36,155 bases of DNA from Trueperaceae bacterium (lineage in GTDB: Bacteria; Deinococcota; Deinococci; Deinococcales; Trueperaceae): the NCBI GenBank assembly GCA_035703635.1, contig DASSXV010000051.1:1-36155 (forward strand). The letters run 5' to 3'. Made by a program: the position numbers and the translations under genes. Of this stretch, positions 1 through 16,898 are shown in pieces (within the stretch, counting starts at the first letter, position 1; each line of letters starts with the position of its first letter). The notes under the pieces were generated by a model that had not been told where the DNA came from, made no database searches, and saw only the letters and a program-made list of their open reading frames with translations.

Positions 1-255
1 CAGCTCTACGAGGAACGCGCGCTGGGCATAGACATGGAGACGGCGACCCTCTTCTCGGTCGGGTTCGCTAGCAAGGTCCCCATCGGCGCGCTGCTGCTCG
101 TGTCCGACTTGCCGCTCAAGCGCGGCGGGATCAAGACCAAGGACTCCGCCAGGGCGGTGTTCAGGGAGCACACCGACAAGCACATCGAGGTTGGTATTCA
201 GGCGATGAGCGAGATCGCTGAGCGCGGGGAGCATATTCGGCATTACCGCTGGTAG
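1..255 (+). CDS. amn: AMP nucleosidase, 3' part (truncated by window start)
   Basis: Frame open from base 1: QLYEERALGIDMETATLFSVGFASKVPIGALLLVSDLPL..GIKTK, ending HIRHYRW*. DMETA and LLLVSD..P are PNP/UDP-family motifs of the AMP nucleosidase type. Confidence 0.85.
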   Translation, partial: QLYEERALGIDMETATLFSVGFASKVPIGALLLVSDLPLKRGGIKTKDSARAVFREHTDKHIEVGIQAMSEIAERGEHIRHYRW

Positions 256-284
256 AAAGCCCCTGGCAGGAAGATGTATCTGTC
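244..284 (+). repeat. att-like repeat copy 1 (overlaps amn stop; attL-like)
   Basis: TACCGCTGGT-AGAAAG-CCCCTGGCAG-GAAG-ATGTATCTGTC. The right arm matches copies 2-4; the left side is amn coding sequence. Confidence 0.8.
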
Positions 285-418
285 AGGCTCTCCCAGCGCT
301 CTGGGCCTAGATTCGGACAGGCGCTCCTGCCCGACGACCACGATCTCCATCTGAGCCAGTTCGGCCCAAGGCGCCATCTCGTGAACGAGGCAGGGCGCCG
401 GAGCCTTGCGGCCACCGA

Positions 419-862
419 CTATCTCGACTTGTCGTTGGCCCTGGCGGTGCGTCTGATCGTCCCCGTAAGTTCGGTGCCCGGTGCGATGGTGTTGAAGACG
501 GTGCCGAACTTCTGGACGTTCTGGTGCAGGAGCTCGATACGGTTGTCGTTCTCGTCGGTGTCGATGATAATCTCGTACTCGATGGACTCCATGCGTGGGG
601 GCGTGTCCTGGCGGGTGCCGCGGACGTTGACGGTGACGCCGCGGGCTTGGAACTTGAGGATGGGCGTGACGCGCTCGATGCCTTTGATGATGCAGGCGGC
701 CAGCGCGGCGAGCAGGAGTTCGGCGGGGTTGAAGGCGTCCGTGCGTCCGCGGAGGTCGGTGTCGAGCGTGATCTGGGCCCGCTTCGTGCGCGCGGCGCTG
801 CCGTGGGCGTCAAGCCGCTGGGCGGTCACCCTGAAGCGCAGCTTGTCGTTGGGGCTTGCCAC
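419..862 (-). CDS. OsmC-family protein
   Basis: FNPAELLLAALAAC motif. GTG start at 862 with GGAGG 6 nt upstream; last gene of the ars operon. Confidence 0.85.
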   Translation of the reverse strand: MASPNDKLRFRVTAQRLDAHGSAARTKRAQITLDTDLRGRTDAFNPAELLLAALAACIIKGIERVTPILKFQARGVTVNVRGTRQDTPPRMESIEYEIIIDTDENDNRIELLHQNVQKFGTVFNTIAPGTELTGTIRRTARANDKSR

Positions 863-864
863 GG

Positions 865-1326
865 TCAACCTCCGGTCACCGTGGGTTCGGGCAGGAGCTC
901 GGCCTCGGTCGGTTTCCGCCCCTCCCTCAGGGCGTGGATGAGCTTCCGGCTGGCGTCGCCGATGGCGTCGCGCACCTCGCGCCAGCGCTCGGGGTCCTGG
1001 CCGCTGGGGTCGGGGAAGGAGACGTGCAGGCGCGTGGTCCTCGCAGGGTAGGCGGGGCAGGCCTCGTTGGCGGCGTCGCACACGGTGAGCACCAGGTCGA
1101 ACCCCCAGGGGTCGGGCAGGTCGTGGAGGGTCTTGGAGGCGTGGCCGCTGATGTCGACGCCGACCTCGCGCATGGCCTCCACCGCCTCGGGCTTCACGCG
1201 CGTGGCCTCGGTGCCGGCCGAGTGGATGTCGGCCTCGAGGCCAGCCTCGCGGGCGTGGTGCCTTAGCCAGCCCTCGGCCATCTGGCTGCGGGCGCTGTTG
1301 TGGGTGCACAGGACTAGGATCCTCAT
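865..1326 (-). CDS. arsC: Arsenate reductase ArsC (LMW-PTPase type)
   Basis: [20 protein letters not shown]-loop, TVCD..A.EACP and FPDPS motifs; ATGA overlap with the acr3 stop. Confidence 0.92.
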
Positions 1327-2447
1327 CGCGATGCTCCTTCGAGGCGTTCGGCTAACGCGGCCGTGGGGGCGCACGCTTCCTCGGCAGCGGTGAGCACGCC
1401 CGCGGGCGCGGGGGTGGTGGCCTTGAAGAGGCGGCCGCGCAGCCACAGCGCCACGCTGACGAGGCCGATGAGCAGCGGCACCTCCACGAGCGGGCCGATG
1501 ACGGCGGCGAAGGCGACGCCGGAGCCGAGGCCGAAGACGCTGACGGCCACGGCGAGGGCGAGCTCGAAGTTGTTGCTGGCGGCGGTGAACGACAGGGTGG
1601 CCGTCCTCGAGTAGTCGGCGCCTACCGCCTTGCCCATGAGGAACGACACCAGGAACATGATGACGAAGTAGAGCACCAGGGGCACGGCGATGACGAGCAC
1701 GTCGAGGGGACGGTCAAGTAGCGTGCCGCCCTGGAGGCCGAACATCATCACGATGGTGAAGAGCAGCGCCATGAGCGTGAGGGGGCTGATACGGGGGAGG
1801 AAGACGCCTTCGAACCACGCCTGGCCCTTGCGGGGGATGAGCAGCGCGCGGGTGAGGAGGCCGGCGGCGAAGGGGACGCCCAGGTAGATGAGCACGGCGC
1901 TGGCGATCGCGCCCATGGAGATGTCGACCACGCTGCCCTGCAGGCCGAGCAGGCCTGGCAGGACGGTGATGAACAGCCACGCGTAGAGGCCGAAGGCGAG
2001 GATCTGGAAGACGCTGTTGAACGCCACCAGGCCGGCGGCGTAATCGTTGTCGCCTTCGGCGAGCTCGTTCCACACCAGCACCATGGCGATGCAGCGCGCC
2101 AGGCCGATGAGGATGAGGCCCGTCATGTACTCGGGGTGATCGCGCAGAAAGATGACGGCGAGGGCGAACATCAGCACGGGCCCGAAGAGCCAGTTCTGCA
2201 CCAGGGAGAGCGCGAGGAGACGCCGGTTGCGGAACACCTGCGGCAGCTTGCCGTAGCGCACCTTGGCGAGGGGCGGGTACATCATGACGATGAGGCCGAT
2301 GGCGATGGGCAAGTTGGTGGCGCCCACGGAGAGGCCATCGAGCAGGTCGCCGAAGCCGGGTGCGAGCGCGCCTAAGGTCACGCCCAGGGCCATGGCGGCG
2401 AAGATCCACACCGTGAGGTAGCGGTCGAGGAGCGAGAGGCGCTTCAT
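1323..2447 (-). CDS. acr3: ACR3-family arsenite efflux transporter
   Basis: [53 protein letters not shown] motifs. Confidence 0.95.
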
Positions 2448-2767
2448 GCGGGGGCCAGTTCGGCGCGCGCCTCGGCCGCGGCGGCGAAGCCCTCCAGGGC
2501 GCCGGCTAGCTCGCGTAGCGCGGCGGGCTGGAGCTCGTAGTACACCCAGCGGCCGCGGCGCTCACCCGTCACCAGGCCGGCGTCGACGAGCTGCTTCATG
2601 TGGTGGCTGACGGTGGGCTGGGTGAGCTTGAGATAGGTCTCCAAGTCGCAACCGCACACGCCGTCGTCACGGGTGCAGTAGCTCTCTACCGGCTCGGCGA
2701 GGAACTGCAGGATCTTGAAGCGAGTGGGGTCGCCCAGCAGCTTCAGCTTGTCGGGGTACTCGTCCAC
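2444..2767 (-). CDS. arsR: ArsR/SmtB transcriptional repressor (start GTG 2767 or ATG 2791)
   Basis: [49 protein letters not shown] overlap with acr3. Confidence 0.9.
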
Positions 2768-2769
2768 GG

Positions 2770-2872
2770 CATCGATGCTAATCGATGGCATAGACGGATG
2801 TCTATGGGGCGGAGGTCCCGCGCGCTCCGCAGCGGGCATTGACGGACATCGATGCATCGACTACTGTCGATG
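2770..2872. promoter_or_regulatory. Four 18-bp palindromes (CATCGAC-N4-GTCGATG type), putative ArsR operators
   Basis: CATCGATgctaATCGATG 2770-2787, CATAGACggatGTCTATG 2789-2806, CATTGACggacATCGATG 2837-2854, CATCGACtactGTCGATG 2855-2872, in the divergent promoter region. Confidence 0.7.
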
Positions 2873-2958
2873 TGGTTGGCGGCGGTCGCTCGGGCCGTGA
2901 TCGGCTCGCAGTGGTAGGCCGCCGCCCCGACACCTCACGGACAGGCAGGGAGCCATCC

Positions 2959-3504
2959 ATGACCACTGCGGAGTTCATAGCCCGACTCGAGCCCCACGCC
3001 AACGAGCCTCTCATCTTCAGTGCCGCCGGCGCGCGCGTGCCGGGCGGCTACCACGTCACCGAGTTCAAGTCCACGAGCGTCAACGCCATGGACTGCGGCG
3101 GCCGCGCCGCTGCCTGGCAGGAGCTCGTGCTGCAGGTGCTGCCGCCCGCCGCCGGAGAGGGAGAGGCGCCCATGAGCGTCGGCAAGTTCCTCTCGATCTA
3201 CCGGCGCGTGGCCAACGCCCTGCCGCTCCCGGCCGACGCGTTGGTGCGGATCGAGTACGGCGCAGCCGGTGAGCGCGCCGTCAGCTACCCGGTCGGGGCA
3301 ATCGCGAGAGGTGCCGGGGGCGTGATCGTCGAGCTGGCGGCGCCGACAGTCGCCTGCAAGGCCAACGACCACACCGTGGGCAACGTCCCTGCGGTGGCCG
3401 CTCACGCAGTGCTTGTGGGCGGCTCCCGCGCTCAAGCGCTGCAAGCTACCGGCTGCTGCGCGCCCGCAGTGAGCGGCTCGACGTCATCGGCCTGCTGCGC
3501 GTAG
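2959..3504 (+). CDS. DUF6428-family protein (ars-associated, Cys-rich C-terminus)
   Basis: VPGGYHVTEFK...MDCGG...WQELVLQ motif; ends CCAP...SACCA; GGGAG RBS before ATG 2959. Confidence 0.8.
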   Translation: MTTAEFIARLEPHANEPLIFSAAGARVPGGYHVTEFKSTSVNAMDCGGRAAAWQELVLQVLPPAAGEGEAPMSVGKFLSIYRRVANALPLPADALVRIEYGAAGERAVSYPVGAIARGAGGVIVELAAPTVACKANDHTVGNVPAVAAHAVLVGGSRAQALQATGCCAPAVSGSTSSACCA

Positions 3505-3962
3505 GTCTGCCGCAAGCGTAGCTCGCCGAACTGGGAGAAGAACCGGCAGCGTCCATCGAAGCCCTCGGGTACGACGGCGTGGCGTGGCCTCGGCGCCTCA
3601 CCGTGATGGCACCCGAGTGCGATGGCCGGAGTCGAGAGCCGTGTGCACGCGACATGCCGATCAGCCATGGAGGGCGCAATGCTTCCCGCCGAGGCGCTTT
3701 TGGCGCCCTTAGGGTCGGATGGCGTTTCCTCTGCGGCGGGATCATGCGGCTGCAAAGTTGCCCGTGCTTCGATGGGGCTGCGAGCCTGCTGTTCGCCTCG
3801 GTGCCTTCTACGCTCTCTCCCCGAGACGTCCGCCTAGTTCGGCGCCTCGAAATCGAGAAGGAAACGAAACGACCGAAGAGAAGACGATTCAAGAAAGGCC
3901 TCGGAAACTCCCACGGCGGCCCTTGGAGGAAATGCCGTCCTAGTCGCGTGTCTGTAAGAAGA

Positions 3963-4015
3963 CAATAGGTAACTACTACCGCTGGTGAAGCCACCGGCGG
4001 GAAGATGTTTCTGAC
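3963..4015 (+). repeat. att-like repeat copy 2
   Basis: CAAT-aggtaa-CTAC-TACCGCTGGT-GAAG-CCACCGGCGG-GAAG-ATGTTTCTGAC. Confidence 0.8.
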
Positions 4016-4098
4016 TCTTACGCCCCTTGCGAATTCGCGTGGTCAGGGAGCCGAAGTTTGGCCCTGTCAGCCGCCTTCATATTCCATCCACGCCCTTT

Positions 4099-4793
4099 CT
4101 ACGGGCCCTGCCTGGCGCCGCTCAGGATCGGCCCGATGAAGGCGTTTATGTCTTTCATCAGGTCAGGGAAGCTGTCGGGGGAGGTCTGGCGGATGCGCTT
4201 CAGGAAGGCGCTCCACTGCACTTGTCGACCCTGGTCGTCCGCGAACGCGGGTGCGAAGAGGCGGTGCGCTTCGGGGATCGCCGTTCCTCTCCGGTTGAAG
4301 GTCGCTTCGATGGCCCTGTGGAGGTCCTGGGCACCGAAGGCCTGGCTGATAGCAAGCTGGTGGATGTCGTAGAAGTCCTTGTAGCGGGAGTTGACCTCGT
4401 AGAGGACGGTGGCGGCTTGGAGCTTCTCGGCGATGACGGTTTCGAGCGAGTAGGCGAGGACGTTCGGCGGCGGGGCATCGAGGAGCGTCGGGTAGTCGAG
4501 TTAGGTGGGGCCCGATGGAAGAGCGTCACCGAGGCTGGCGTCGCCCGGCCCATGAAGTCGATGTCGCGGGTAGGGCGCGAAGCGAGCCCGAAATTGCCGT
4601 ACAGGTACAGGCCGCCTTTGAGGATGAGCCGGTCGCGGTGGCTGCTGTGCGCGAGGCGCGCCAGCCACCTTTCTTGCACGTAGAGAAGTTGCAGGCGGTT
4701 GTAGTCGACGCCTTGGTCGCTGTAGTCGACGCCTTGGTCGCGTGCGAGGTTCCTCAGGCGCTGGTGCACGGAGGCAGCCATGTTGGCCGTCAT
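4099..4793 (-). pseudogene. abiEii: AbiEii nucleotidyltransferase toxin, disrupted
   Basis: N-terminus LILKGG...RPTRDIDF, then an internal deletion/frameshift. Another frame reads GDALPSGPT*LDYPTLL...YSLETVIAEKLQA...NSRYKDFYDI. Also a 21-bp tandem duplication at ~4701-4742. Confidence 0.85.
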
Positions 4794-5416
4794 AGGAGCG
4801 CCTCGAGGTAGGTGCGCATCTGGCCGTGCTCGCGGCGTACGCGCGCCGCCTCCATCACCTCGGCGGGGTTGGGCCTTGGCTTACGCCTGCGCACGTAGGT
4901 CTGGAGGGCTTCCAGGAAGAGGTCGTTGCCGAGCTCGTTGCGGTAGTAGAGCATGTCGGCGAGAGTCTTCTCGGGGGAGTAGACCTTGAGCGTGGCCGGG
5001 CCGGCGGGGTGCTCCTCGATCCCGTAATGGTAGACGCGTTCGGTGAAGTAGTAGAAGCGCACGGGCGGGTAGTCGATGGGGGGTGTGCGGGCCTTATTGG
5101 GGATGGCTAGGTCGATCTCTCCCGGTACTATCGTGCTGAGCTCGTGGAAGGAGAGGGCGCTGCGGAGGCAGACGACGCCTTTGGGGATGCGGAGCGCCAG
5201 CTCGACGTACGTCTCGTCCGTCAGGGCTGGGGCGGTAGCGTCGCGGTAGACGCCGCGCTGGACGCGCTCGGCGCGGCCTTGCTCCACCCAGGCTGAGAGC
5301 AGGTGCGGGTCGATGCCGGCGTCGACCACCTGCTGGCGCCGCAGGTAGCCTTGGTGCTTCTTGAAGAGCTGCTCGAGGCGGGTGGCGGGGGTCTGCTGGT
5401 CGTGGGGGGCTTCCAT
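4790..5416 (-). CDS. abiEi: AbiEi type IV TA antitoxin / transcriptional regulator
   Basis: ERVQRGVY, GVVCLRSALSFHELST..P, VYSPEKTLAD motifs; ATGA overlap with abiEii; probable start ATG 5416. Confidence 0.9.
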   Translation of the reverse strand: MEAPHDQQTPATRLEQLFKKHQGYLRRQQVVDAGIDPHLLSAWVEQGRAERVQRGVYRDATAPALTDETYVELALRIPKGVVCLRSALSFHELSTIVPGEIDLAIPNKARTPPIDYPPVRFYYFTERVYHYGIEEHPAGPATLKVYSPEKTLADMLYYRNELGNDLFLEALQTYVRRRKPRPNPAEVMEAARVRREHGQMRTYLEALL

Positions 5417-5718
5417 ATAGTGTAGGTACCTTAGCACGAAGCACCGACGGTTTGTGGGCCTGGGAGGACGGCATCGATATGGTGTAACAGTGAGGTTGAG
5501 CCCTGTAGGCTTACGTGTTCGTCCAAAGCGGGCAGTTCTAGGTTTCGTAGAGGGGGCGTACCTCACGCAATCGTTGTCCTGGACGGCCTTCGCCGACGTC
5601 ACCCCACGCCAGTCCCAGTTCATAACCCCGTAAGGGGTCACCAGTAAGACTTTGCGGGCGGGAATCTTGCGGGTTCCCGCCCCGTACCGTTTTGGAGCCC
5701 CGACCGATTGGACAGAAC

Positions 5719-5966
5719 ATGCTCAAGAACCGGCCGCAACTCCTCGCCGTGCTCCTCGGCCTCACGCTGCTCCTGGCCGCCTGCCAGGACCCGCCGCCCA
5801 CGCTGGCCAGGTAGCCGGCGAGAACGTCACCGCCGAACTCACGCCCGCCCCCGACTGCACCTACGCCTTCGAAGGCACCCTCACCAGCACGACCCTCGCT
5901 GGCGCGTACGAACCACTCGCCTGCCCGGGCGGGCAGAGCGGCACGTGGGCGCTCGAGCTGCGATGA
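5719..5966 (+). pseudogene. Frameshifted lipoprotein
   Basis: MLKNRPQLLAVLLGLTLLLAAC-QDPPPTLAR* (5719-5814) continues in another frame as [11 protein letters not shown]...SGTWALELR* (to 5966), whose stop overlaps the next ATG. Confidence 0.65.
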
Positions 5967-6106
5967 AGCGCGCCCGCCTCGCCGCGCTCCTGGCGATCGC
6001 CACCCTGCTCCTGGTCGCCTGCCAGGACCCCACCCGCAACCCCCTCACCGGACCACGGCCCAACCAGTGGGACGCCAGCGTCTGGGACAACGCCCAATGG
6101 GAGTAA
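5963..6106 (+). CDS. 47-aa lipoprotein with C-terminal W-D-x3-W-D-x3-W motif
   Basis: [47 protein letters not shown]; lipobox LVAC; ATGA coupling. Confidence 0.75.
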
Positions 6107-6111
6107 TAACC

Positions 6112-7608
6112 GTGAAGCGCACCCTCACCCTCCTGCTCACCCTGCTCCTCGTCGCCCCCGCCGCGCTGGCGCAGACCACGCCCGAACTGTTCATCTTCAA
6201 ACCCGGCACCTCGATCCGTGCTGACGAGATGAACGCCAACTTCCAGCTCCTACGCGACCACATCAACAACGCCCTCGGCCTCGCCGACATCACCAGCGAA
6301 GACCTCGAGGAGCTCGCCCACCTCGTGGCGCAGATCCAGGCCCTCGCCGAGTCTGGCGAGCTGCACGGCACCAGCCTCGAGTACGCCTGGGACGGCACCC
6401 GCCTCGGCATCCGTGCCGAAGGGGACGAGGCGTACGCCTACGTCGACCTCCTCGGCCCCGCCGGCCCCCAAGGCGCAACCGGCCCCGGCTTCGAGTACGC
6501 CTGGAACGGCACCCAACTCGGCGTCCGCGCCGAAGACGAGGACGAGTTCACCTACGTCGACCTCCGCGGCCCCCAAGGCCCCACCGGACCCCAAGGCGAA
6601 CAAGGCGAACGCGGTGAACCCGGCGCCGCCGGTCGCGACGGCGCTGACGGCCGCAACCTCGTGTTCGAGTGGAGCGGCACGCAACTAGGCGTCGGCTACG
6701 AGGGTGGCATCATCTTCTTCTCCGACCTCCAAGGCCCACAAGGCAACCAGGGCGAGCATGGCCCACGCGGCGAGGCCGGCCCCCAAGGCCCGCAGGGCGA
6801 ACGCGGCGAGACCGGCCCCCAAGGCCCCAAAGGCGACCAAGGCGAGGCCGGACCCCAAGGCACCCCCGGCCCGCAAGGCGAACGCGGCGACACCGGCCCC
6901 CAAGGACCAACCGGACCCCAAGGCGAACCCGGACCCCGCGGCGACACCGGAGCAACCGGCCCGCAAGGCCCCACCGGCACCCCCGGTGCCGACGGCCGCA
7001 CCCTCCTCAACGGCAACTTCCCACCCCCCGACACCATCGGCCAAGACGGCGACTTCTACATCAACACCAACACGTGGCAGATCCACGGACCCAAACAAGC
7101 CGGCACCTGGGGACCCGGCGCAAGCCTCACCGGCCCTCAAGGCCCCCAAGGCGAACCCGGCGCACCCGGCCCCGAATACCACGCCGGCTACGGCCTCCGA
7201 ATGGACGGCACCACCATCAGCCTCCAGAACGCCCAAGCCCTCCCCGCGTGCGGCGCGCACGCCGTACCCAAAACCGACAGCTACGGCGAGTGGACGTGCG
7301 GTCCCGCCTTCGGCACCGACCCAGGCGACTACCCCACCCAGGTCGACGGCAGGGAGGTCACCGACTGCGTCATCGGTGACGTCTGGCTCACCGCCGGCGT
7401 CGTCGGCGGCGGCGCCATCGCCAACGGCGCCCTGTTCAGCATCGCCCAAAACACAGCCCTCTACTCCCTCCTCGGCACCCGGTACGGCGGCGACGGCGTG
7501 ACCACCTTCGCCCTCCCCGACCTCCGCGACTCCGCCCCCCGCAGCCGCAACGGTCCCGCCCTCAACTACGTCATCTGCATCCACGGCCTCTACCCCAACA
7601 GGTACTGA
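6112..7608 (+). CDS. Secreted collagen-like fibre protein with C-terminal phage tail-collar domain
   Basis: Signal peptide (GTG 6112; ...AALA-Q), EMNANF motif, three (E/F)xWxGTxLG repeats, long G-X-Y tracts, and IGDVWL...[30 protein letters not shown] tail-collar motif. Confidence 0.85.
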
Positions 7609-7657
7609 CCCAACCCACTGAAGTCACCCCCCCACCCAACCGCACCCAATACCCCCT

Positions 7658-7692
7658 CGAGGGCGCCCCCGCAACACCAAGGGGCGCCCTCG
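7658..7692 (+). terminator. Stem-loop downstream of collagen gene
   Basis: CGAGGGCGCCCC-N11-GGGGCGCCCTCG, perfect 12-bp stem; weak U tract. Confidence 0.55.
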
Positions 7693-7912
7693 CTCATTAA
7701 CGGCCAAGGCAGAGGCCATAGCGCCAGCCCCCACGGGCCGGCGCACCCCCAACACCAGCGCCCTGAACGGTCCTGGGTCTTGTGGAGTGCAAACCTCACA
7801 CAGTCGTCGTCTCGGACGCGACTTTGGGAGTCGTCAAAACAAGTGCCGGAGCGCCGCTCGAAGCGAGTCGCGCCGCTGACGCGAGATGCCGCGTCTCCAT
7901 CGAGAATCGGCG

Positions 7913-7973
7913 TCAAATCAATCGACCGCTACTACCGCTGGTAGGAATCCACCGGCGGGGAAATGTCTCTGAC
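7913..7973 (+). repeat. att-like repeat copy 3
   Basis: TCAAAT-CAAT-cgaccg-CTAC-TACCGCTGGT-AGGAAT-CCACCGGCGG-GGAA-ATGTCTCTGAC. Confidence 0.85.
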
Positions 7974-8053
7974 CGCGTCGCTGGGCGTGCTTCGGACGTG
8001 TCTGGGCACATAGCCAGGAAGGCAAGCAGCTCCAGCAAGGCTAGACGGTCCAG

Positions 8054-9301
8054 CTACTGCTGCTCACCTGTAGGCAGGCCGGCTGCGCGGCCCTCGAGGA
8101 GGTTCTGCGTGAACCATGAAACGTCTGCCGTCAGTCGTGGGTGGGCTCGAGGGTGCGGATCTTCACGATGGACGGTCTCGAGCACCGTACCGAGCGCCTC
8201 GTCGATGATGGACTCAGTGTCGGCAAGGCCCCATGAGAGGGCTTCCTCGACGAGATGGCTCCGCGTGACATGCGCGTGGCGGTACTCGCCGGCGACCGCG
8301 AGCGCCATCTCCCCGTCGTTCCGTTGGTGCGCTTGCGGTACGAAGTCGTAGGCCGGGGCCAGCTCCACGGTTCCCCCTTCGAGATGCAGGAGGGAGATGT
8401 TCTTGGCGTGCATGTCCAGGTTCCCGACGGCGGCGGCTAGCACCACCATCCGGAGGAGCGCCTCGCGGCTCTCGGGCCCTGTGTGCTGTTCGAGCAGGCG
8501 CGCGATGCGTGCCAGGCTGGCCTTCCCGCCGTATCGCTGGTACTTTTCGTCGCCGCTCGCGCCGAGGGCCTGGTTGAAGTCCTCCTGATGGAGGCGTGCT
8601 TGCGGAGCGTCGGGGGAGCGGTCGTAGCGCTCGATGACCAGCGCCGGCACGCCTGCGAACTCTTGGATCCACGTGCGGTATGGGATCAGTCCTACGGCGC
8701 GGGCTAGGCGGGCGCCGTACTCCTCGTCGTAGATGACGGTGGGGAGGCCCTCGGGCACGGGTTTGAGGATGTGGCTGGAGGGATAGCCGTCGAGTGCTCT
8801 GTTCCAGCCGTCCGCGGTATGCGCCAGGACGATCTTGTCCTGCACCCCGGCCAATGACGACTTGCCGCCCCGGGGCTTGTTGCCTAGCGGGAAGTCCTGC
8901 ACGTTCTCGAGCAGCTCTGCCACCCCGGCCTCGTCGAGCGGTTCGAGCCTTGGTTGGCGGGGCTCGCCGGGTACGTCCGGGTCCCAGATCTGCAGCGCCC
9001 CGGCGACGTCGCGACCGTAGCGGCGGAGCAGCCCGATGGTGTCGCTCTCGGGCACGTTCGCTTCCTGAGCCAGCCGCTTCAGCATGCGGCCTTCGGGAAG
9101 GAGCTCTTGGAAGAAGTTGCGCCGCTTCTGCTTGTGCGCTCGAGTAGGCACCACTGCTAGCGGGACGGCGACCGACAGTATGGGGCTGTCGATACCGAAT
9201 GTCCTCACGGCGCCTGGCTCGAACTGCAGGTCGAACGTGCGCCAGTCGCCCTCCAGCGTGCCGATTCTGGTGCCGTACAGTTCGACGACCAGGTCAGCCA
9301 T
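8054..9301 (-). CDS. hipA: HipA-family Ser/Thr kinase toxin
   Basis: N-terminal couple domain (FFQELLPEG), SSLAGVQDK, HILKP, LVIERYDR, LHQEDFNQALG, GNLDMHAKNISL, LAPAYD. Confidence 0.95.
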   Translation of the reverse strand: MADLVVELYGTRIGTLEGDWRTFDLQFEPGAVRTFGIDSPILSVAVPLAVVPTRAHKQKRRNFFQELLPEGRMLKRLAQEANVPESDTIGLLRRYGRDVAGALQIWDPDVPGEPRQPRLEPLDEAGVAELLENVQDFPLGNKPRGGKSSLAGVQDKIVLAHTADGWNRALDGYPSSHILKPVPEGLPTVIYDEEYGARLARAVGLIPYRTWIQEFAGVPALVIERYDRSPDAPQARLHQEDFNQALGASGDEKYQRYGGKASLARIARLLEQHTGPESREALLRMVVLAAAVGNLDMHAKNISLLHLEGGTVELAPAYDFVPQAHQRNDGEMALAVAGEYRHAHVTRSHLVEEALSWGLADTESIIDEALGTVLETVHREDPHPRAHPRLTADVSWFTQNLLEGRAAGLPTGEQQ

Positions 9302-9533
9302 GCTTCTCGGGCGATCTGATGGTGGCGGAGAGTTCGACGTCTACCTCGCGCATCATCGCGAACAGCCGCTCCATGAAGATGGAGGGTTTGCCGGCCTCGA
9401 TCTCCCAGATGTAGCGTTGGGTGGTGCCGAGGCGCTCGGCGAGTTCGCGTTGGCTCAAGCCTCTGAGCAGGCGGGCTTGTTGCAGGATCCTTCCAAGCGA
9501 CTCGGCGCTTGTGACCTTGCCCGTGAACTCCAC
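9294..9533 (-). CDS. XRE/HipB-like HTH antitoxin
   Basis: LGRILQQARLLRGLSQRELAERLGTTQRYIWEIEAGK; overlaps the hipA start; GGAGG RBS. Confidence 0.9.
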   Translation of the reverse strand: MEFTGKVTSAESLGRILQQARLLRGLSQRELAERLGTTQRYIWEIEAGKPSIFMERLFAMMREVDVELSATIRSPEKHG

Positions 9534-9543
9534 TTCCGCCTCC

Positions 9544-9617
9544 TGACTACTGAATCGTAGTCATCCTATGCGACTACTAAAAGGTAGTCAAGCTCCCTGA
9601 CTACGAAATAGTAGTCA
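9544..9617. promoter_or_regulatory. Three 20-bp operator palindromes TGACTAC-N6-GTAGTCA, 27-bp period
   Basis: At 9544-9563, 9571-9590 (one mismatch) and 9598-9617, immediately upstream of the antitoxin gene. Confidence 0.85.
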
Positions 9618-9720
9618 AGGCGTTGCTGGCGACGGGCTGGTTAAGAGCAATCCGCGGAGACGTACGTTCGAGAGCGCGAGCCTCTGGGTCGAGAAGGCTC
9701 GTTGGTGGCATGCCGGGCAA

Positions 9721-9781
9721 TCAAAACAATCGACCCCTACTACCGCTGGTAGAAATCCACCGGCGGGGAGATGTTCCTGAC
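9721..9781 (+). repeat. att-like repeat copy 4
   Basis: TCAAAA-CAAT-cgaccc-CTAC-TACCGCTGGT-AGAAAT-CCACCGGCGG-GGAG-ATGTTCCTGAC. Confidence 0.85.
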
Positions 9782-9829
9782 CCCGTCCCCTGGCGCTCTT
9801 ACGCCTTGTCCGGCTACCTCGCCAGTAGG

Positions 9830-10057
9830 TCAAGCGTTCTCATCAAGGCCAAACGGTTCGGTACGCCGCTCGCCTGTGGGCAGACCGGCGGCGCGGCCGT
9901 CTAGTAGGTTCTGCGTGAACCATGAGATGTCCGCCGTCAAGCGTGGGTAGGCTCGCGGGTGTGGCTCTTCGTGCCGCACGGTCCGGAGCGCGGTTTCTAG
10001 CGCCTCGTCGATCGCCGGTTCGGGCTCGGCGAGGCCCCAGGAGAGAGCCTCCTCGAT
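9830..10057 (-). pseudogene. 3' remnant of a second hipA paralogue
   Basis: IEEALSWGLAEPEPAIDEALETALRTVRHEEPHPRAYPRLTADISWFTQNLLDGRAAGLPTGE aligns with the C-terminus of the HipA at 8054-9301. Confidence 0.9.
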
Positions 10058-10127
10058 ACGGCCCCGCCGAAAGGCACGTCGATCGCGTCAAGCTCATCAA
10101 CCGCCGCATCTACAACTGCGGAAGCGA
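10057..10127 (+). mobile_element. Tiny ISL3-like transposase C-terminal remnant
   Basis: GPAERHVDRVKLINRRIY resembles the ISL3 motif GxxEGxxNRIKxIKRxxYG. Confidence 0.5.
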
Positions 10128-10130
10128 CGC

Positions 10131-11168
10131 CTACAACGAGCCGCCCGTGCACTGCTTCTGGCCCGCGGGGTCGTAGGCGGTGCTGCTGCCGCCGAGGAGC
10201 ACGTTGAGGCGCGAAGCCTGCAGCATGCGGCTGTAGCTGCCGTAGCAGGGCGTGGTGGCTTCCTTCCAGCAGAGGTGGGCGCCGGCGCGCACTGCGCTCT
10301 CCACCAGCTGCGCCTCGGCTGCGAAGGTGGCGCCCATGCCCGCCAACTGCGTGGTCCTCACCCAGCCGAGCACCTTGCTGGCGTGGGTCGCCACGCCGGC
10401 GCAGCTGCCAGAGATCTCCGGCAGCAGCGGCGCGTTCGCGCGCTGGAAGATGGTGTTGAGGATGGCCTCCAGCTTCTCCGCCAGCTCGGGGTCGCCCTCC
10501 TCGCCACGGAGCTCGGCCGTGCGCTCCTTGGCCAGCAGGTCGCTGAGCAGCTGCTCGAGCTGCGCCTCCCAGTCGCTGGGCGTGAAGTCATCGAGCGATC
10601 CTTCGATGGCGTAGGGCGCCGCCTCGGTGCCGAGGTAGGCGCCGTGCAGCGAGAAGTGGAACAGGTTGAACGTCACGCTGTTGGCGCTGCCGGTGCGCGT
10701 CGGCGCCACTAGGTGGAAGTCGCTGAAGGAGGCGCCGACGTTGTCGTCGTGGGCGGCGAAGCCGATGGCGCTGATGGCGTCGCCTGTGGCGGGCGTGACC
10801 TCGAGGGTGGCAGCGTCGTAGAGGCGCAGCCCGGCCGGCTCCAGGACCACGCCGTGCAGGCTGCCGGTTACCGGCGCGCCTTCGATGCTGCTAAGCGGCG
10901 TAATGGAGATCCTGACGGGGGAGAGGAGCGCCTCGCCCGTGACGGTGAGGTGGTAGGTGGTGCCGTCTTCGCTGGTGGTCACGAGCGTGCCGCCGGTGAG
11001 TGGGATCTCCGCGCTGACGTAGCCGATGGCCCGGTAGGCCTGCACCGTCAGGGGCTTGGGCTCGGGGAGCTTGATGGTGGGCTTGGGCGGCGGCGTGTTG
11101 GAGACGCATGCGACCAGGAACGCCAGCAAGACCATGGGTACGCCGCAGCGAAGGTGCAAATCGCGCAT
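10131..11168 (-). CDS. Hypothetical lipoprotein (possibly C-terminally truncated)
   Basis: Lipobox LLAFLVAC; beta-rich N-half with LEPAGLRL and LFHFSLHG (ZU5-like pattern, uncertain). Confidence 0.7.
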   Translation of the reverse strand: MRDLHLRCGVPMVLLAFLVACVSNTPPPKPTIKLPEPKPLTVQAYRAIGYVSAEIPLTGGTLVTTSEDGTTYHLTVTGEALLSPVRISITPLSSIEGAPVTGSLHGVVLEPAGLRLYDAATLEVTPATGDAISAIGFAAHDDNVGASFSDFHLVAPTRTGSANSVTFNLFHFSLHGAYLGTEAAPYAIEGSLDDFTPSDWEAQLEQLLSDLLAKERTAELRGEEGDPELAEKLEAILNTIFQRANAPLLPEISGSCAGVATHASKVLGWVRTTQLAGMGATFAAEAQLVESAVRAGAHLCWKEATTPCYGSYSRMLQASRLNVLLGGSSTAYDPAGQKQCTGGSL

Positions 11169-11419
11169 AAGCCTGGTTCCTCCTGCCGCAATTGCGCTTT
11201 CGGCGTCAACGGCGAGACTCTGGTTGTGATGTAGGAGCGGTGGGAAGTGCTCTTGCGGCAGGTTACAACATGTCCAGCGGGCATGCGCGGGTGACGTGTC
11301 TCGCCATGCGCGCGGCCGCTCGCGCCAACCACCGTTCCTCCAAGGCGCGAAGGGATCTAGGGCTGGAACTCCCTGCCTCGACCTGACCCCGTTACCTGTG
11401 CCTCATGGTTCCGTCGTCG

Positions 11420-13888
11420 TTACCCATGCTGTTCGTCGTTCTCCGCGCCCGGCGTGGCCGTCGCGCCTGGCCAGGTCCACGCCGTGATCTCGGGCGCGTC
11501 CTCGCCATGAGCCCGCGTGTACTCTCGCGCCCGTACCCGCGCATCTTGCATCTGCTGCCGCAGGCCGGCGTAGCGCGCCGCCAACCCAGGCACCTGATCG
11601 AGGACGTCCATCACCAGGTGGTACCGGTCGATGCCGTTCATCATCACCATGTCGAACGGGGTCGTCGTGGTTCCCTCCTCGATGTAACCGCGCACATGCA
11701 GGTTGTCGTGGCCGTGCCTTCTGTATGTCAGGCGGTGTATCAGCCAGGGGTAGCCGTGGTAGGCGAAGACGACCGGCTTGTCGGCGGTGAAGATGGCGTC
11801 GTACTCCAGGTCGCTGAGTCCGTGCGGGTGCTCCGATTCGCTCTGCAGGCGCATCAGGTCGACGACGTTCACCACGCGCACCTTCAACTGAGGAACCCGG
11901 TCTCGCAGGATCGCGGTGGCGGCGAGAACCTCGAGGGTCGGCACGTCTCCAGCTGCGGCCAGGACGACATCGGGTTCTTCTCCCGGTCGCTCCGCGCCGG
12001 CCCACTCCCAGACGCCGAGCCCACGAGTGCAGTGTTCGATCGCCTCGCTCATCGTGAGCCAGTTCGCGGTGGGCTGCTTGCCGGCGACGACCACGTTCAC
12101 GTAATCGACCGAGCGCAGGCAGTGGTCGTATGTCGATAGCAGGGTGTTCGCATCGACGGGGAGGTACACGCGCACGATGTCTGCCTTCTTGTTCACGACA
12201 TGGTCTATGAAGCCCGGATCCTGATGCGAGAAGCCGTTGTGATCTTGCCGCCAGACGTGCGAGCTTAGCAGGTAGTTCAACGATGCGATCGGACGGCGCC
12301 AAGGCACCCGCCGCGCCGTCTTGAGCCACTTGGCGTGCTGGTTGAACATCGAGTCCACGATGTGGATGAACGCCTCGTACGAGTTGAGCAGCCCGTGCCG
12401 CCCGGTCAGCAGGTACCCCTCGAGCCAGCCCTGGCACTGATGCTCGCTCAGCATCTCCACGACGCGGCCCGTACGTGACAGGTGGTTATCGGCATCTAGC
12501 GGCAGGAACTCTGCATCCCACTGCTTGTTCGTCGCCTCGAACACGGCGTCCAGGCGATTGGAGGCCGTCTCGTCGGGACCGAAGATCCGGAAGCTGTGAG
12601 GGTTCCAACTGATCACGTCGCGCAGCCAACGCCCGAGCACACGCGTCGCCTCGCTCGTCGAGGCCCCTGGCGAAGGCACGTCGACGGCGTAGTCCCTGAA
12701 GTCCGGGATCCTTAGTTCCTGCCGCAGGAGCCCGCCGTTGGCGACCGGGTTGGCGCTCATCCGCAGCTCCCCGGCCGGCGCCAGTGCCGTCACGGACGCG
12801 GAGACCGCACCGTTGGGATCGAAGAGCTCCTCGGGCCCGTATGAGCGCATCCAGCTTTCAAGCAACTGCGTGTGCGCGGTCGTGTCCCTGGCGTCCGGCA
12901 ACGGCACCTGGTGTGAGCGCCAGTTGCCTTCGACCGGGTGCCCGTCGATCTCTGCGGGGCAGGTCCAGCCCTTCGGCGTGCGCAGGATGATCATCGGCCA
13001 TCGTGGTCGACACTGCAGGGCCCCGGACGCGGCGTCCGCCTTGATCGCGGCGATGTGGTTGATGACCTCGTCCAGGGCAAGCGCAAGACGTCGGTGCACG
13101 GCGATCGGGTCTTCGCCGTCGAAGCCGCCCGACACGAGGTAGGGCGTGTACCCGTAACCGCGCATCAGCTCGAGCAGCTCGCTCTCGGGGATGCGCGCGA
13201 GTACCGTCGGATTGGCGATCTTGAAGCCGTTGAGGTGCAGGATCGGCAAGACGACGCCGTCGTGGACGGGGTCGAGGAACTTGTTCCCGTGCCATCCAGT
13301 GGCGAGCGGCCCCGTCTCTGCCTCCCCGTCCCCCACGACCGTTGCGACCAGCAGGCCCGGGTTATCGAACGCGGCGCCGAACGCGTGAGATAGCGAGTAG
13401 CCGAGCTCCCCACCTTCGTGGATCGACCCCGGAGTCTCGGGCGCCACGTGGCTCGGGATCCCTCCGGGCAAGGAGAACTGCCGGAACAACCGGCGCACGC
13501 CGTCTTCCGTGAGATCGATCGTGGGGTAGACCTCGCTGTAGGTGCCGTCCAGGTAAGCATTGGCGACCATGCCGGGCCCGCCGTGCCCCGGCCCGGCGAT
13601 GAAGATCGTGTTGATCGAGCGCTCTCTTATGACCCGGTTGAGGTGGGCGTAGACGAGGTTGAGGCCGGGGGTGGTGCCCCAGTGACCGAGCAGGCGGGGC
13701 TTGACGTGCTCGCGAAGCAGAGGCTCGTGCAGGAGAGGGTTGTCCAGGAGGTAGATCTGGCCGACGGAGAGGTAGTTCGCGGCGCGCCACCACCTGTCGA
13801 GGCCCTGGAGGGCCTCCGCGCTTGGCTCGCTCACTTCCCGGAACGGCCACGGAAGCTGCCCGGACGCGTCCACGGCAGGACTCTCCAT
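11420..13888 (-). CDS. xfp: Phosphoketolase (XFP family)
   Basis: [61 protein letters not shown]; probable start ATG 13888 (AGGA RBS). Confidence 0.95.
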
Positions 13889-14004
13889 GCGCAACATCCT
13901 ACGGCCCGATCGGATTCCTTGCCACGCCAAGCGCCGCTTGCCGTTTCGAAGCCGAGGCGCGCAGCGTGTTGTGGCCCAAGGCGGTTAGGCGCCGCTCGGC
14001 CTTT

Positions 14005-14285
14005 AGTATCGTCGGCTCGCTTGGCCGCGTCGCGCTCGGCTTGCTCGGAGTTGTGCACCACCACGAAGCGGCGGCTGGCGACGCTGCCAGGGTTGATGAT
14101 CACTTCCTTGACCTGAAGGCCGTTCGACAGGGTCTTGCAACGACCAGCTCGCGTCAGCGCCTCGCGCAGGCTGCCGTCCGTGCCTAAGCGCATCTTCTCG
14201 CCCAGGATGACAGCGTCGCCGGCGCCTTGCAGGGCGCAGCGGTTCTCGGCGCTGTCGAGACCCGTGTCCATCGGATATACACAGT
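14005..14285 (-). mobile_element. IS1634-family transposase internal fragment
   Basis: DTGLDSAENR..LQGAG..VILGEKMR...EALTRAGR...LQVKEV...RRFVVVHNSEQAERDAAKR; no intact ends seen. Confidence 0.7.
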
Positions 14286-14332
14286 GCCCACGTGGCGGTC
14301 GGGTGCCATCCCGGCGGCAAGCGGCGGCACGA

Positions 14333-15022
14333 CTAACTCGCCCCGTCCACCCCGATGCCCGCGTCTCGCGCCCGTTGCGCTGCGGCCCTGCGGTCACTGA
14401 CTTCGAGCTTCCCGAGGATGGTGGAGACGTGGTTGCGCACGGTCTTGCTCGTCACTTGGAGGTGACGCGCTATCTCGGCATTGTTGAGGCCCTCGGCGAT
14501 CAACGCCAGCACGTCACGCTCGCGCTTGGTCAACTCAGGGAACGGCAGCGCACCACCGGAGACAGACGCTGCAGAGAAATAGCGGCTGAAGCGCTGGACG
14601 ACGTTCGGGTCGAACAACGCCTCGCCGTTCGCGGCAGCCATGATGGCGCGCTCGAGCTCCGCCTTGCTGCCGCCCTTGAGGACGTAACCCTTGGCGCCAG
14701 CCTTCATGGCGCGGAACACGGTCTCGTCGTCAGCGAACATCGTCACCATGATGATGGCGGCTGTCGGATCGTTGGTCAGGATGCGGCCAGCGGCCTCAAC
14801 CCCAGAGAGCCCTGGCATGCGCGCGTCCATCAGGATCACTTGCGGGTCCAGACTCTCCGCCAGCGCGACTGCTTCGCTGCCGTCGTGCGCCATCCCGACG
14901 ACTTCACAACTAGGGAGCGTGGCAACCAATAGTGCCAGCCCCTCGAGGAAGAGCTCGTGGTCGTCTGCTACCAGCACTCTCGTCGGAGGCGCCAACTCTG
15001 GGGCGGAGGTCACGCCGGTCAC
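14333..15022 (-). CDS. NarL/LuxR-family response regulator
   Basis: VLVADDH..LMDARMPG..GAKGYVLK receiver domain; LTKRERDVL..GLNNAEIA..KTVRNHVS HTH. Confidence 0.95.
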   Translation of the reverse strand: MTGVTSAPELAPPTRVLVADDHELFLEGLALLVATLPSCEVVGMAHDGSEAVALAESLDPQVILMDARMPGLSGVEAAGRILTNDPTAAIIMVTMFADDETVFRAMKAGAKGYVLKGGSKAELERAIMAAANGEALFDPNVVQRFSRYFSAASVSGGALPFPELTKRERDVLALIAEGLNNAEIARHLQVTSKTVRNHVSTILGKLEVSDRRAAAQRARDAGIGVDGAS

Positions 15023-15777
15023 GTTGCTACGGGCCGACCGGTGGTCGTCAAGAGGAAACGCCGTGCGGCCCCAGGCAGCGGCACCGTGACTATCAGGGTC
15101 ATGCCGTGGGCCTCGTTGCGTAGGAGGTGCGCCCTGCCGCCGGCGCGGCGCGCCGATACCCGCAACGACGCCAGGCCGATGCCACCCCTGTGGCCAGTCA
15201 AGCGGCCGCCAACCCCCACGGCCCCGACTCCGTCGTCACGCACGATGAGAGTCGCCCGCGCTGAGCGCAGCTGGATGAGCACCCAACAGTGCCGCGCTTG
15301 GGCGTGGCGCACGACGTTGGCCGTGCCTTCCAGCGTCGCTCGGTAGAGGAGTTCGGTTACGGCAGGAGAGAGGTTGGCGGCGGACCCGGAGGCGGCGAAG
15401 CTCACTTCGAGGCCAGCTAGCGCCAGCAGGTTCAGCGCCTCCTTGACCGCGCCGATCAGGTCTAGCCGCTCGAGCGTCTCGGGCGGTTCGCTATGCACGA
15501 TGCGGCGCAACTCGCCGACGAGGCGTGAGACCTCGTCACGTAAGGAGGCGACCTGCTCGGGGGCGGTCGCGCCAAGCTTGGCGTCTTCGGCGAGGAGTTG
15601 AAGTCTTACCTCGAGGCCAGCCAGGCCTGGGCCGAGGCGATCGTGGAGGTCGCTTAGGAGCTGCTCGCGAGTCCGGGAATCGGGGTGGCTCACGCTTGGC
15701 CCACTGACCCGGCGTGCTTGGCGGTCAGCCACCGCGTTAGTGATGTGGGGCTCGGCTAACTTAGTGCTGAATGGCAT
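15019..15777 (-). CDS. HisKA_3-type histidine kinase without an evident sensor or TM region
   Basis: DLHDRLGP H-box, EGTANVVRHA N-box, VRDDGVG, GIGLASLR; AAGGAGG RBS before ATG 15777. Confidence 0.85.
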   Translation of the reverse strand: MPFSTKLAEPHITNAVADRQARRVSGPSVSHPDSRTREQLLSDLHDRLGPGLAGLEVRLQLLAEDAKLGATAPEQVASLRDEVSRLVGELRRIVHSEPPETLERLDLIGAVKEALNLLALAGLEVSFAASGSAANLSPAVTELLYRATLEGTANVVRHAQARHCWVLIQLRSARATLIVRDDGVGAVGVGGRLTGHRGGIGLASLRVSARRAGGRAHLLRNEAHGMTLIVTVPLPGAARRFLLTTTGRPVAT

Positions 15778-15826
15778 GCCAGTGCCCCTCCTTTCACCAG
15801 CGCTCACGCTACTCCGACAAGGTGAG

Positions 15827-15858
15827 ACGCGAGGGTGCCGATGATGGCACCCTCGCGT
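15827..15858. terminator. Stem-loop downstream of the secreted-protein gene
   Basis: ACGCGAGGGTGCC-gatgat-GGCACCCTCGCGT, perfect 13-bp stem. Confidence 0.55.
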
Positions 15859-15915
15859 GCGAGGCTTAGGTTTGTTTCATGCACGCTCAACGGCGTGCTC
15901 AACAAGCAGTACTAG

Positions 15916-16803: not shown

Positions 16804-16898
16804 AAACTGCCTCCGTTTCCTAGCGAAGCTTGCGCTCCCGGGCGTCCCGCTGTCATGGGGCGCCGTCCCTACCTAGTTCGGGACGACCCAAGAGGCGC

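Follow-up and report, generated by a model that had tools for sequence, protein, structure and literature searches.

The DNA considered here is the whole 36,155-nt contig DASSXV010000051.1 of a Trueperaceae bacterium (assembly GCA_035703635.1), called the window in the following; the genome to which it belongs, 2.9 Mb in size, is referred to as G000. The window begins inside the 3' end of amn, the gene for a short-form AMP nucleosidase, and at the amn stop codon there starts a series of direct repeats that enclose toxin-antitoxin, defense, and resistance genes. On balance, positions 244-9785, together with a decayed tail reaching to about 14320, probably represent a tandem array of small non-autonomous islets, which would have been accreted one after the other by site-specific recombination at the last amn codons. 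Serial insertion of non-autonomous modules at the amn terminus had been proposed in an earlier note on the same DNA, and the proposal holds as far as sequence comparison reaches.

Four Composite Sites Follow amn in the Window

The exact 10-bp core TACCGCTGGT is found at positions 244, 3977, 7933, and 9741, which gives core-to-core spacings of 3733, 3956, and 1808 nt. All sites are chromosomal and lie in direct orientation.

1-255, plus strand: 3' end (84 codons) of amn, short-form AMP nucleosidase (NF005500, E 8.8e-29), with the TAG stop at 253-255
244-288, plus strand: site 1 (attL type), the amn Tyr-Arg-Trp codons forming the core, then the long right arm (alignment, profile)
3917-4019, plus strand: site 2, B-type left arm, core, long right arm; stop TGA, spacer 2 nt shorter (alignment, profile)
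7873-7977, plus strand: site 3, A-type left arm, core, long right arm (alignment, profile)
9681-9785, plus strand: site 4, A-type left arm, core, long right arm (alignment, profile; a contig of run X5 departs from the window here across 14 letters common to both)

The long right arm follows the core in all four copies, with the word ATGT at +30 (+28 in copy 2), and every copy reads Tyr-Arg-Trp-stop in the amn frame, the stop being TAG in three copies and TGA in copy 2. Our alignment agrees on each of these points, including the spacings, with what the earlier note had read from the sequence, and it supports the view expressed there that copy 1 is a junction of amn, core, and right arm, with a left arm in the place of amn in copies 2-4. 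The left arm had been described as the 14-nt motif CAAT-N6-CTAC, present in copies 2-4 only. This restriction stands, copy 1 being the end of amn, but the length does not, as the arm extends over about 60 nt or more.

The core alone is a common word, with nine copies in the genome against 6.1 expected, and position 8532 of the window carries an armless core that differs by one letter. The nhmmer profile built from the four 45-nt copies recovered them with E values of 7e-13 to 4e-11, the next match in the genome having an E value of 3.4. When copies 2-4 were extended by 25 nt of left arm, the profile gave 4e-21 to 1e-18 for these copies, 5e-7 for copy 1, and 1.3 for the next match. The palindrome formed by core and right arm occurs nowhere else in G000, G003, and G014. 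Specificity thus resides in the core plus arms and is restricted to the amn locus in this genome, and the repeats lie far outside chance expectation. Within one array the copies share short exact runs only and are 69-86% alike over 29-59 nt. Sites 3 and 4 have about 330 nt in common, because the segment after site 4 opens with a 3' remnant of hipA (9843-10109).

The Same Sites Occur in Relatives and in Metagenomes

The 14-mer CTACTACCGCTGGT is present in 22 of 128 genomes of the family. Their flanks show that 11 of these genomes, belonging to four genera, carry true sites (the window's genome, G002, G003, G011, G012, G014, G022, G029, G072, G095, and G099), and that the other 11 are coding-sequence or chance matches. 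G004 additionally shows an amn junction with the long arm alone before the contig ends. The left-arm pattern returned 16 stretches in the genome contig collection, 10 true and 6 by chance, and 19 in the metagenome contig collection, all 19 of them true. Record titles of the loci with the same sites name Trueperaceae, Deinococcaceae, or Deinococcales metagenome-assembled genomes. Wherever amn shares the contig, the array starts at the amn stop codon. The islets measure 0.9-7 kb and, in the deepest stack, lie at least five deep; the metagenome contig L331 has five sites in 11 kb. In many genera a conserved gene directly follows amn and the site is absent, and the phenomenon is therefore lineage-restricted. 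We detected amn in 81 of the 128 family genomes, and in G005, G006, G096, G100, and G143 the contig ends at most 25 nt from the amn 3' end; contig breaks at the amn stop are what a branch point in the assembly graph gives.

Two other patterns added no further sites. A strict right-arm pattern found the window copies alone in 61 genomes (the window's and 60 relatives) and was too strict. The hairpin pattern CCGCTGGT-N6-10-ACCGGCGGG matched at least 120 genome-contig and 89 viral-contig stretches; none of the 209 fetched loci was scored by the site profiles, which marks these as chance matches in GC-rich DNA.

In the comparison with relatives, the left arm spans no fewer than 60 nt, some positions of which are invariant, and the whole composite site is about 110 nt long. 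The left arms are of four types, A, B, and C ending in AAAACAAT-N6-CTAC and D ending in ...TTCGGTTCG-N-GTTAC, and the right arms are of two types, long and short. In the long arm, the type of the window, a segment able to pair with the core is followed by GAARATGTTTCTGAC. The short arm begins with AAATAGTTTC, resembles the long arm minus the pairing segment of about 17 nt, and spans about 45 nt in some copies. By eye, a GCGTCYCC-like word is present in both arms. A CTAC/GTAG dyad around the core had been taken in the earlier note as a sign of a tyrosine recombinase. It is not conserved: CTAC is missing from copy 1 and from left arms of type D, GTAA or GTGA stands in the short right arms, and the dyad therefore provides no evidence for such an enzyme.

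For a census of site composition we used 50 of 80 loci, omitting 30 whose titles name Bdellovibrionota and allied groups, and removed identical copies, which left 52 distinct internal sites and 52 distinct amn junctions. A right arm is recognizable at 16 of the 52 amn junctions (12 long, 4 short). Left arms of types A-C precede 20 long and 12 short right arms, and D-type left arms precede 8 long and 3 short ones; the arms assort independently around the core. The exact core is kept in 49 of the 52 internal sites, and a stop in the amn frame, formed by AG, AA, or GA after TGGT, in 50 of them. The direct repeats duplicate the terminal bases of amn at every junction and leave the gene intact. Synonymous changes at position 3 or 6 of the core distinguish four of the 16 armed amn junctions (TATCGTTGGT, TATCGGTGGT, TACCGTTGGT, and TACCGGTGGT), and these are alleles also found in relatives without arrays. 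Such variants would be expected if exchange occurs beyond position 6, within TGGT or immediately 3' of it; drift that came later, limited by coding constraint, would account for them equally well.

Repeats of this kind might also be a regulatory or structural element, such as a terminator, a small RNA, or a repeat of the REP or MITE (miniature inverted-repeat transposable element) kind, that recurs between operons. The long right arm can indeed form an 8-bp stem with the core, and one of the four window sites was flagged as terminator-like, on the minus strand. However, the scan gave five terminator-like matches against a shuffled expectation of 4.6, RNAalifold found four pairs, no covariation, and no conserved fold in 17 sites, and single-strand folds were unremarkable in seven of eight cases (z-scores +1.3 to -2.6). 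A search of window positions 1-15000 against Rfam at E values up to 1 returned merely one chance snoRNA-like match. The arms are conserved as primary sequence, and structure is not. The copies are moreover confined to the amn locus (four, all in the array) rather than dispersed, and such an element accounts for neither the breakpoints on the core described below nor the in-frame amn stop. We regard this explanation as largely refuted already and give it a very small probability.

Differences Between Strains Fall on the Core

Two relatives, G003 and G014, were compared across the core. The G003 sequence on its left side corresponds to the amn junction of G014, and that on its right side corresponds, including a long matching stretch, to an internal junction located 6.8 kb further on in G014. 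The 6.8-kb insertion of G014, absent from G003, is bounded by core and long right arm at one end and by B-type left arm and core at the other, and the AbiE module that comes after the junction is homologous in both genomes (87%). The difference has the form expected of a circle integrating into an amn-core-short-arm site.

The same module also occupies different array positions. The hipBA module, third in the window, is adjacent to amn on L328, where amn and the core are directly followed by it (98.9% over 1835 nt, counted from the core); on L317 it comes second (amn, AbiE, hipBA), and the amn end of that contig is 97.8% identical to the window. In G072 it comes first, with 87.9% identity to the window module. 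In G016 (L041/L362), amn is directly followed by a long right arm in degenerate form, and behind it come remains of hipA and a hipB-like gene that shares 84% identity with window positions 9272-9615. This locus looks like a decayed amn-proximal hipBA module that the site profiles did not score.

Sequencing runs of other samples were compared as assembled contigs. A 24-kb contig of X5 is colinear with window 1427-9736, then continues into a site-2-like right arm across the 14-mer CTACTACCGCTGGT and rejoins the window at 14327. One contig of X2 crosses site 1 as the window does, and another departs at 258 into a right arm known from L317. Logan contigs of other samples also end at 4006, 7944, 7956, and 7908. 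The terminal segment of the window array is missing from the X5 contig and from L317, L320, and L334, all of which rejoin the window at 14321-14327; synteny of the flank resumes there against G003, G013, and G016 and against L317 and L320 (blastn). Stretches of low or no coverage in single runs (e.g., 9613-14418 in X5) were counted solely alongside a bridging contig, and differences in module depth in X2 and X10 were not used.

Breakpoints between strains fall on the core, as seen for G003/G014, L328, L317, L334, and the X5 contig. The earlier note had named three findings that would speak against its reading: a motif scattered over the genome, an invariant region downstream of amn in relatives, and strain breakpoints away from the cores. 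We examined all three. The site profile, scanned over the genome, finds the motif at the amn locus only, relatives, and even near-identical strains, differ in the genes that they carry downstream of amn, and the breakpoints lie on the cores.

There are signs that modules have passed between genera. The AbiE part of the window has counterparts with 89-93% identity in G095 and G022, both of another genus, and in G012, whereas amn itself is about 82% identical between genera g1 and g6. A 4110-nt array segment of G011:C125 (L312) is 99.9% identical to G072:C19:2720-6829 (L303), and the two are filed in different genera; this could be a recent module transfer or a mis-binned contig.

Cargo Consists of Multi-Gene Modules

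Between and beyond the sites, the window contains the following segments.

289-3916, minus strand: module 1, OsmC-like protein 419-1309, ACR3/SBF arsenite carrier 1323-2447, ArsR 2444-2857, and about 1 kb without family match (Pfam, NCBIfam)
4020-7872, both strands: module 2, truncated AbiEii 4200-4793 (minus), AbiEi 4790-5641 (minus), small open reading frames (ORFs) 5652-6106 (plus), collagen-repeat/tail-collar protein 6067-7608 (plus) (Pfam)
7978-9680, minus strand: module 3, hipA 8054-9301 and helix-turn-helix antitoxin 9294-9533 (Pfam)
9786-14320, minus strand: terminal variable segment, hipA 3' remnant 9843-10109, 345-aa ORF without known family 10131-11168, phosphoketolase 11420-13930 (Pfam; repeat comparison)
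14321-17000, minus strand: conserved chromosomal flank, LuxR-type response regulator region, histidine kinase 15019-15807, and TerC 16899-17852 (blastn, Pfam)

The Pfam matches agree with the cargo named in the earlier note (ars, AbiE plus fiber, and hipA toxin-antitoxin). The remaining ORFs of the window with Pfam matches are housekeeping genes, and a few ORFs have no family match. In relatives and metagenomes, the cargo was surveyed in 76 ORFs of relatives' loci and in 98 ORFs of 15 of the 19 metagenome contigs, four apparent near-duplicates having been dropped. Modules contain two to six genes on both strands, often AbiEi/AbiEii and HipA, and also MazF/PemK, HepT with a nucleotidyltransferase (HepT/MNT), and HigB/HigA. 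Further cargo comprises NERD and HEPN proteins, major facilitator superfamily and ABC/MacB transporters, BlaR1/BlaI, a CAAX protease, Kelch and leucine-rich repeat proteins, an erythromycin esterase, and glyoxalases.

Chromosomal integrons commonly carry toxin-antitoxin cargo, and direct repeats that bound cargo with no integrase inside recall an integron-type array minus its integrase (a cluster of attC sites lacking integron-integrases, CALIN), in which the repeats would be attC sites. Several observations argue against this. The best score of an integron-integrase model among the four tyrosine recombinases of the genome is 64.6 bits against a cut-off of 265; the 17 sites folded above share no structure, their sequence is kept instead, and Rfam gives no match; and the modules are multi-gene units on both strands, with no promoterless one-gene cassettes found. 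We consider a CALIN highly improbable. The term 'integron-like' used in the earlier note fits loosely at best, in the sense of an array with no integrase inside; IntI, attC-type structure, and one-gene promoterless cassettes were not found.

Several details of the window concern individual genes. The truncated AbiEii has 197 aa and matches profile positions 3-42 of 238, and its antitoxin partner looks whole; in other samples, this region shows a 21-nt deletion at 4700 and small insertions at 4104-4105. In the 513-aa protein (6067-7608), collagen triple-helix repeats occur together with a phage tail-collar domain. The length of its repeat region differs between samples, 18 nt being missing at 6571 in X5 and X17, and 121 additional letters stand between 5804 and 5805 in X2, X5, and X17. 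A tRNA-Pyl with anticodon CTA called by ARAGORN at 9963-10039 lies inside the hipA 3' remnant and is probably a false positive.

The N-terminal part of amn lies on contig C21, where positions 2693-3346 correspond to profile positions 7-222, and the end of C21 and the start of the window share an exact overlap of 141 nt. On L328 (reverse strand, about 1300-1470), the amn gene beside hipBA has an internal deletion of about 100 nt that ends near window position 141, which coincides with the place where the window contig and C21 stop overlapping. A mixed population with an L328-type amn deletion may explain the assembly break inside amn.

Search for a Recombinase or an Autonomous Partner

The arrays do not reveal the enzyme that accretion by site-specific recombination would call for. 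As the earlier note had stated, the window encodes no recognizable recombinase: neither PF00589 nor PF00239 has a match in it. The four PF00589 matches of the genome lie on other contigs, and a search of this genome and of four relatives for PF00239 gave no match. Tyrosine and serine recombinase families have no member among the 76 ORFs of relatives' loci and the 98 metagenome-contig ORFs, in which two insertion sequence transposases, on L333 only, are the sole mobile-element genes. A phmmer search with the four integrases of the genome, which is less sensitive than Pfam, found none among 946 ORFs within 10 kb downstream of amn in 50 Deinococcota loci, and no recombinase was found near amn in G003 and G013-G016. 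The earlier note had envisaged relatives with an integrase next to the site; none was found beside any array examined. The window ORFs without family match show no mutual similarity, hence no hidden common recombinase ORF was seen.

Nor do the integrases of the genome follow the distribution of the sites. A 429-aa type occurs in 5 of 18 genus genomes and a 464-aa Xer-like type, as close orthologues, in 16 of 18, and neither tracks the sites; a 377-aa integrase adjoins a tRNA-Ala gene. G029 has sites and no PF00589 match among the 150 of 481 matches listed in the family survey, which also covered the unpublished genome G117, on which none of our conclusions depends. Among the same 150 listed matches, a single PF00589 gene lies on an amn contig, in G066, 18.5 kb downstream of amn; the intervening 21 kb contain no site repeat.

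Searches for mobile relatives were negative as well. The left-arm pattern has no match in viral contigs, site 3 found no counterpart among plasmids and phages by blastn, and at the patterns used, no related autonomous integrative and conjugative element (ICE) or integrative and mobilizable element (IME) using these sites was found in the genome, metagenome, viral contig, plasmid, or phage collections. We saw no circular junction among the assembled contigs of the runs, where rare excision products are invisible. Three features of the arrays themselves point in the same direction. The copies have unequal right-arm spacers, which would be an obstacle for a tyrosine recombinase that has to recombine one copy with another. 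The closing site of the window array is not recognizable, and the tail at 9786-14320 runs straight into the conserved flank. Finally, contigs of X2 and X17 join 10499 to 14148, so that the phosphoketolase and part of the 345-aa ORF are missing, and this joint is not at a repeat site. Taken together, these results weigh against accretion by a dedicated recombinase.

They also bear on an explanation that needs no such enzyme. The boundaries of about 100 nt, together with amn and the right flank, could serve as portable homology, and modules would be swapped by RecA-dependent or homology-facilitated exchange after DNA uptake, like at the cassette-exchange loci of naturally transformable bacteria. 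Natural competence occurs in this phylum. Besides the lack of a recombinase anywhere near the arrays, a mosaic of identities favors this explanation: the array segments of L334 and L328 are 97-99% identical to the window and the flank 88-90% (for L334, modules 2-3 97.4% and right flank 88.6%), as expected from exchange of larger segments. The deletion 10499-14148 and the decayed terminal module indicate that ordinary rearrangements act here too. However, the copies within one array, 69-86% alike over 29-59 nt, would make a poor RecA substrate. Portable homology also leaves unexplained the occurrence of the same long two-armed sites on unrelated cargo in four genera, the independent arms around a 10-bp core (exact in 49/52), and the stop kept in 50/52 internal sites, and it does not explain the difference between G003 and G014 with its exact form of circle integration. 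We consider this explanation rather unlikely. Accretion of islets by site-specific recombination is the reading we prefer; clearly, uptake of DNA followed by homologous exchange of array segments could contribute to the variation as well.

Xer-Like Recombinases and the Predicted dif Site

Host Xer-like recombinases offer another possible source of the activity. They would act on a dif-like site at the amn terminus, as they do on integrative mobile elements exploiting Xer (IMEX) or on the dif modules of Acinetobacter. IMEX arrays likewise consist of elements without recombinase in direct tandem, and the only tyrosine recombinases that we saw widely conserved in the genus are two Xer-like paralogues. 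The toxin-antitoxin cargo resembles that reported for pdif modules.

In XerS and XerH systems, the recombinase gene lies beside dif. Directly upstream of a conserved Xer-like gene we found a perfect 28-bp palindrome with 11-bp arms, a 6-bp center, and inner GATAA/TTATC. In the complete genome G003 (2.92 Mb), with dnaA at 2.79 Mb and amn at 0.63 Mb, the palindrome lies on C1 at about 1.3098 Mb (L344), at the maximum of the cumulative GC skew (about 1.305 Mb), and it is kept in G000:C13 at about 1523-1555, upstream of the Xer-like gene 1571-2599. The palindrome is likely the dif site, and we refer to it as predicted dif. It came from a general search; a canonical dif (ATAA-N6-TTAT with flanking C/G) was not found in the 400 kb around the G003 terminus. 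The accessible part of PMC9764985 contains no Deinococcus dif sequence.

Three results speak against Xer-dependent integration at amn. In G003, amn lies about 0.68 Mb away from the GC-skew maximum and hence away from the terminus, and predicted dif shows no likeness to the amn sites. The second Xer-like paralogue (464 aa, G000:C2:51954-53348), which has 66-88% identity in 16 of 18 genus genomes, was not found in site-bearing G003 and is present in G015 and G016, which have no intact sites. We judge the Xer-dependent explanation improbable.

Proposed Mechanism and Its Implications

According to our model, an islet would run from one core through right arm, cargo, and left arm to the next core. 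The composite attachment site of its circular intermediate would measure about 110 nt, with the core TACCGCTGGT preceded by about 60 nt of left arm, which is of four types, and followed by a long or short right arm. Integration at the amn-proximal site would preserve the C-terminus of Amn, because every right arm gives a stop straight after TGG, and each new integration would displace the older islets distally. The exchange would probably occur at the TGGT/stop part of the core or immediately 3' of it. The enzyme would most plausibly be a dedicated tyrosine integrase. Recombinase genes are found neither in nor beside the arrays in any genome examined, and the enzyme would therefore act in trans or be absent at present.

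A bolder version of this model, which we put forward only tentatively and hold to be doubtful, is that Deinococcota possess a new kind of system that actively captures cassettes. Its recombinase, encoded away from the array and perhaps the conserved second Xer-like paralogue or a member of an unrecognized family, would insert small circular modules at the amn stop via the composite sites and thereby maintain a chromosomal store of toxin-antitoxin, defense, and resistance modules, shuffled by strains and exchanged across genera. If true, the system would functionally parallel integrons and dif modules, with a different site architecture and a different enzyme.

Integron cassettes, dif modules, IMEX, and cis-mobilizable elements (CIMEs) are major routes of trade in defense and resistance genes, and each known kind is tied to a known enzyme. 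The same logic appears here in a little-studied phylum, with a long two-armed site on the end of a coding sequence, cargo rich in toxin-antitoxin genes, differences between strains, and no enzyme seen. The definition of the site lets such arrays be found in metagenomes and makes the acting enzyme testable. Should no enzyme be found, the locus would be a clean case of cassette exchange by portable homology.

Comparison with Known Systems

Integrase-less islets between att-like repeats at the end of a protein gene are of a known kind. The site described here is unusually elaborate and conserved, and its enzyme is missing. Searches of the literature on Trueperaceae genomic islands and on integration at AMP nucleosidase genes yielded nothing on such arrays in Deinococcota.

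In their layout the islets resemble CIMEs, which are att-flanked, lack integration and transfer genes, and stand in tandem at the 3' end of a protein gene; ICE/CIME accretion occurs at the fda 3' end in Streptococcus thermophilus. CIMEs depend on the integrase of a related element, whereas no related autonomous ICE or IME was found for the islets in the collections searched. The cargo, mostly toxin-antitoxin and defense genes, and the presence of four left-arm and two right-arm families set the islets apart as well.

Direct tandem arrays with no recombinase of their own are also formed by IMEX at dif, such as CTX/TLC/RS1 in Vibrio and the gonococcal island, but the amn site is neither at the terminus nor dif-like. 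With integrons and CALINs, the islets have in common that units appear to enter beside a fixed anchor, that the array grows away from it, and that an integrase is absent within. They differ in having no IntI, no attI beside an integrase, no structure-defined attC, and multi-gene modules with their own orientation.

The pdif sites alternate in orientation and are mostly found on plasmids. The pdif modules of Acinetobacter are reported to be small units without recombinase that often carry toxin-antitoxin or resistance genes, are shuffled between replicons at short sites, and depend on an enzyme encoded elsewhere (PMC6449649; PMC13141974; PMC12907356). Both kinds of module are thus small, recombinase-less, and bounded by recombination sites, but the 28-bp XerC/D sites described there contrast with the direct chromosomal sites of about 110 nt on the end of a coding sequence, which are unlike predicted dif.

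The amn gene itself had been thought in the earlier note not to have been described as a target. This view needs correction: Burkholderia phage KS5 and related prophages attach at the amn 3' end with the integrase adjacent (PMC3091744), a statement about the amn attachment site that PMC5247547 repeats. Target gene and end are the same as here, the KS5-type element is described as replacing the gene terminus, and other Burkholderia genomes have phage remnants at the same place (PMC3091744). KS5 is a 37-kb P2-like phage with a tyrosine integrase directly beside amn, as opposed to integrase-less islets of 0.9-7 kb in another phylum. With the arrays described here, the amn 3' end is an attachment site in Deinococcota as well as for Burkholderia phages.

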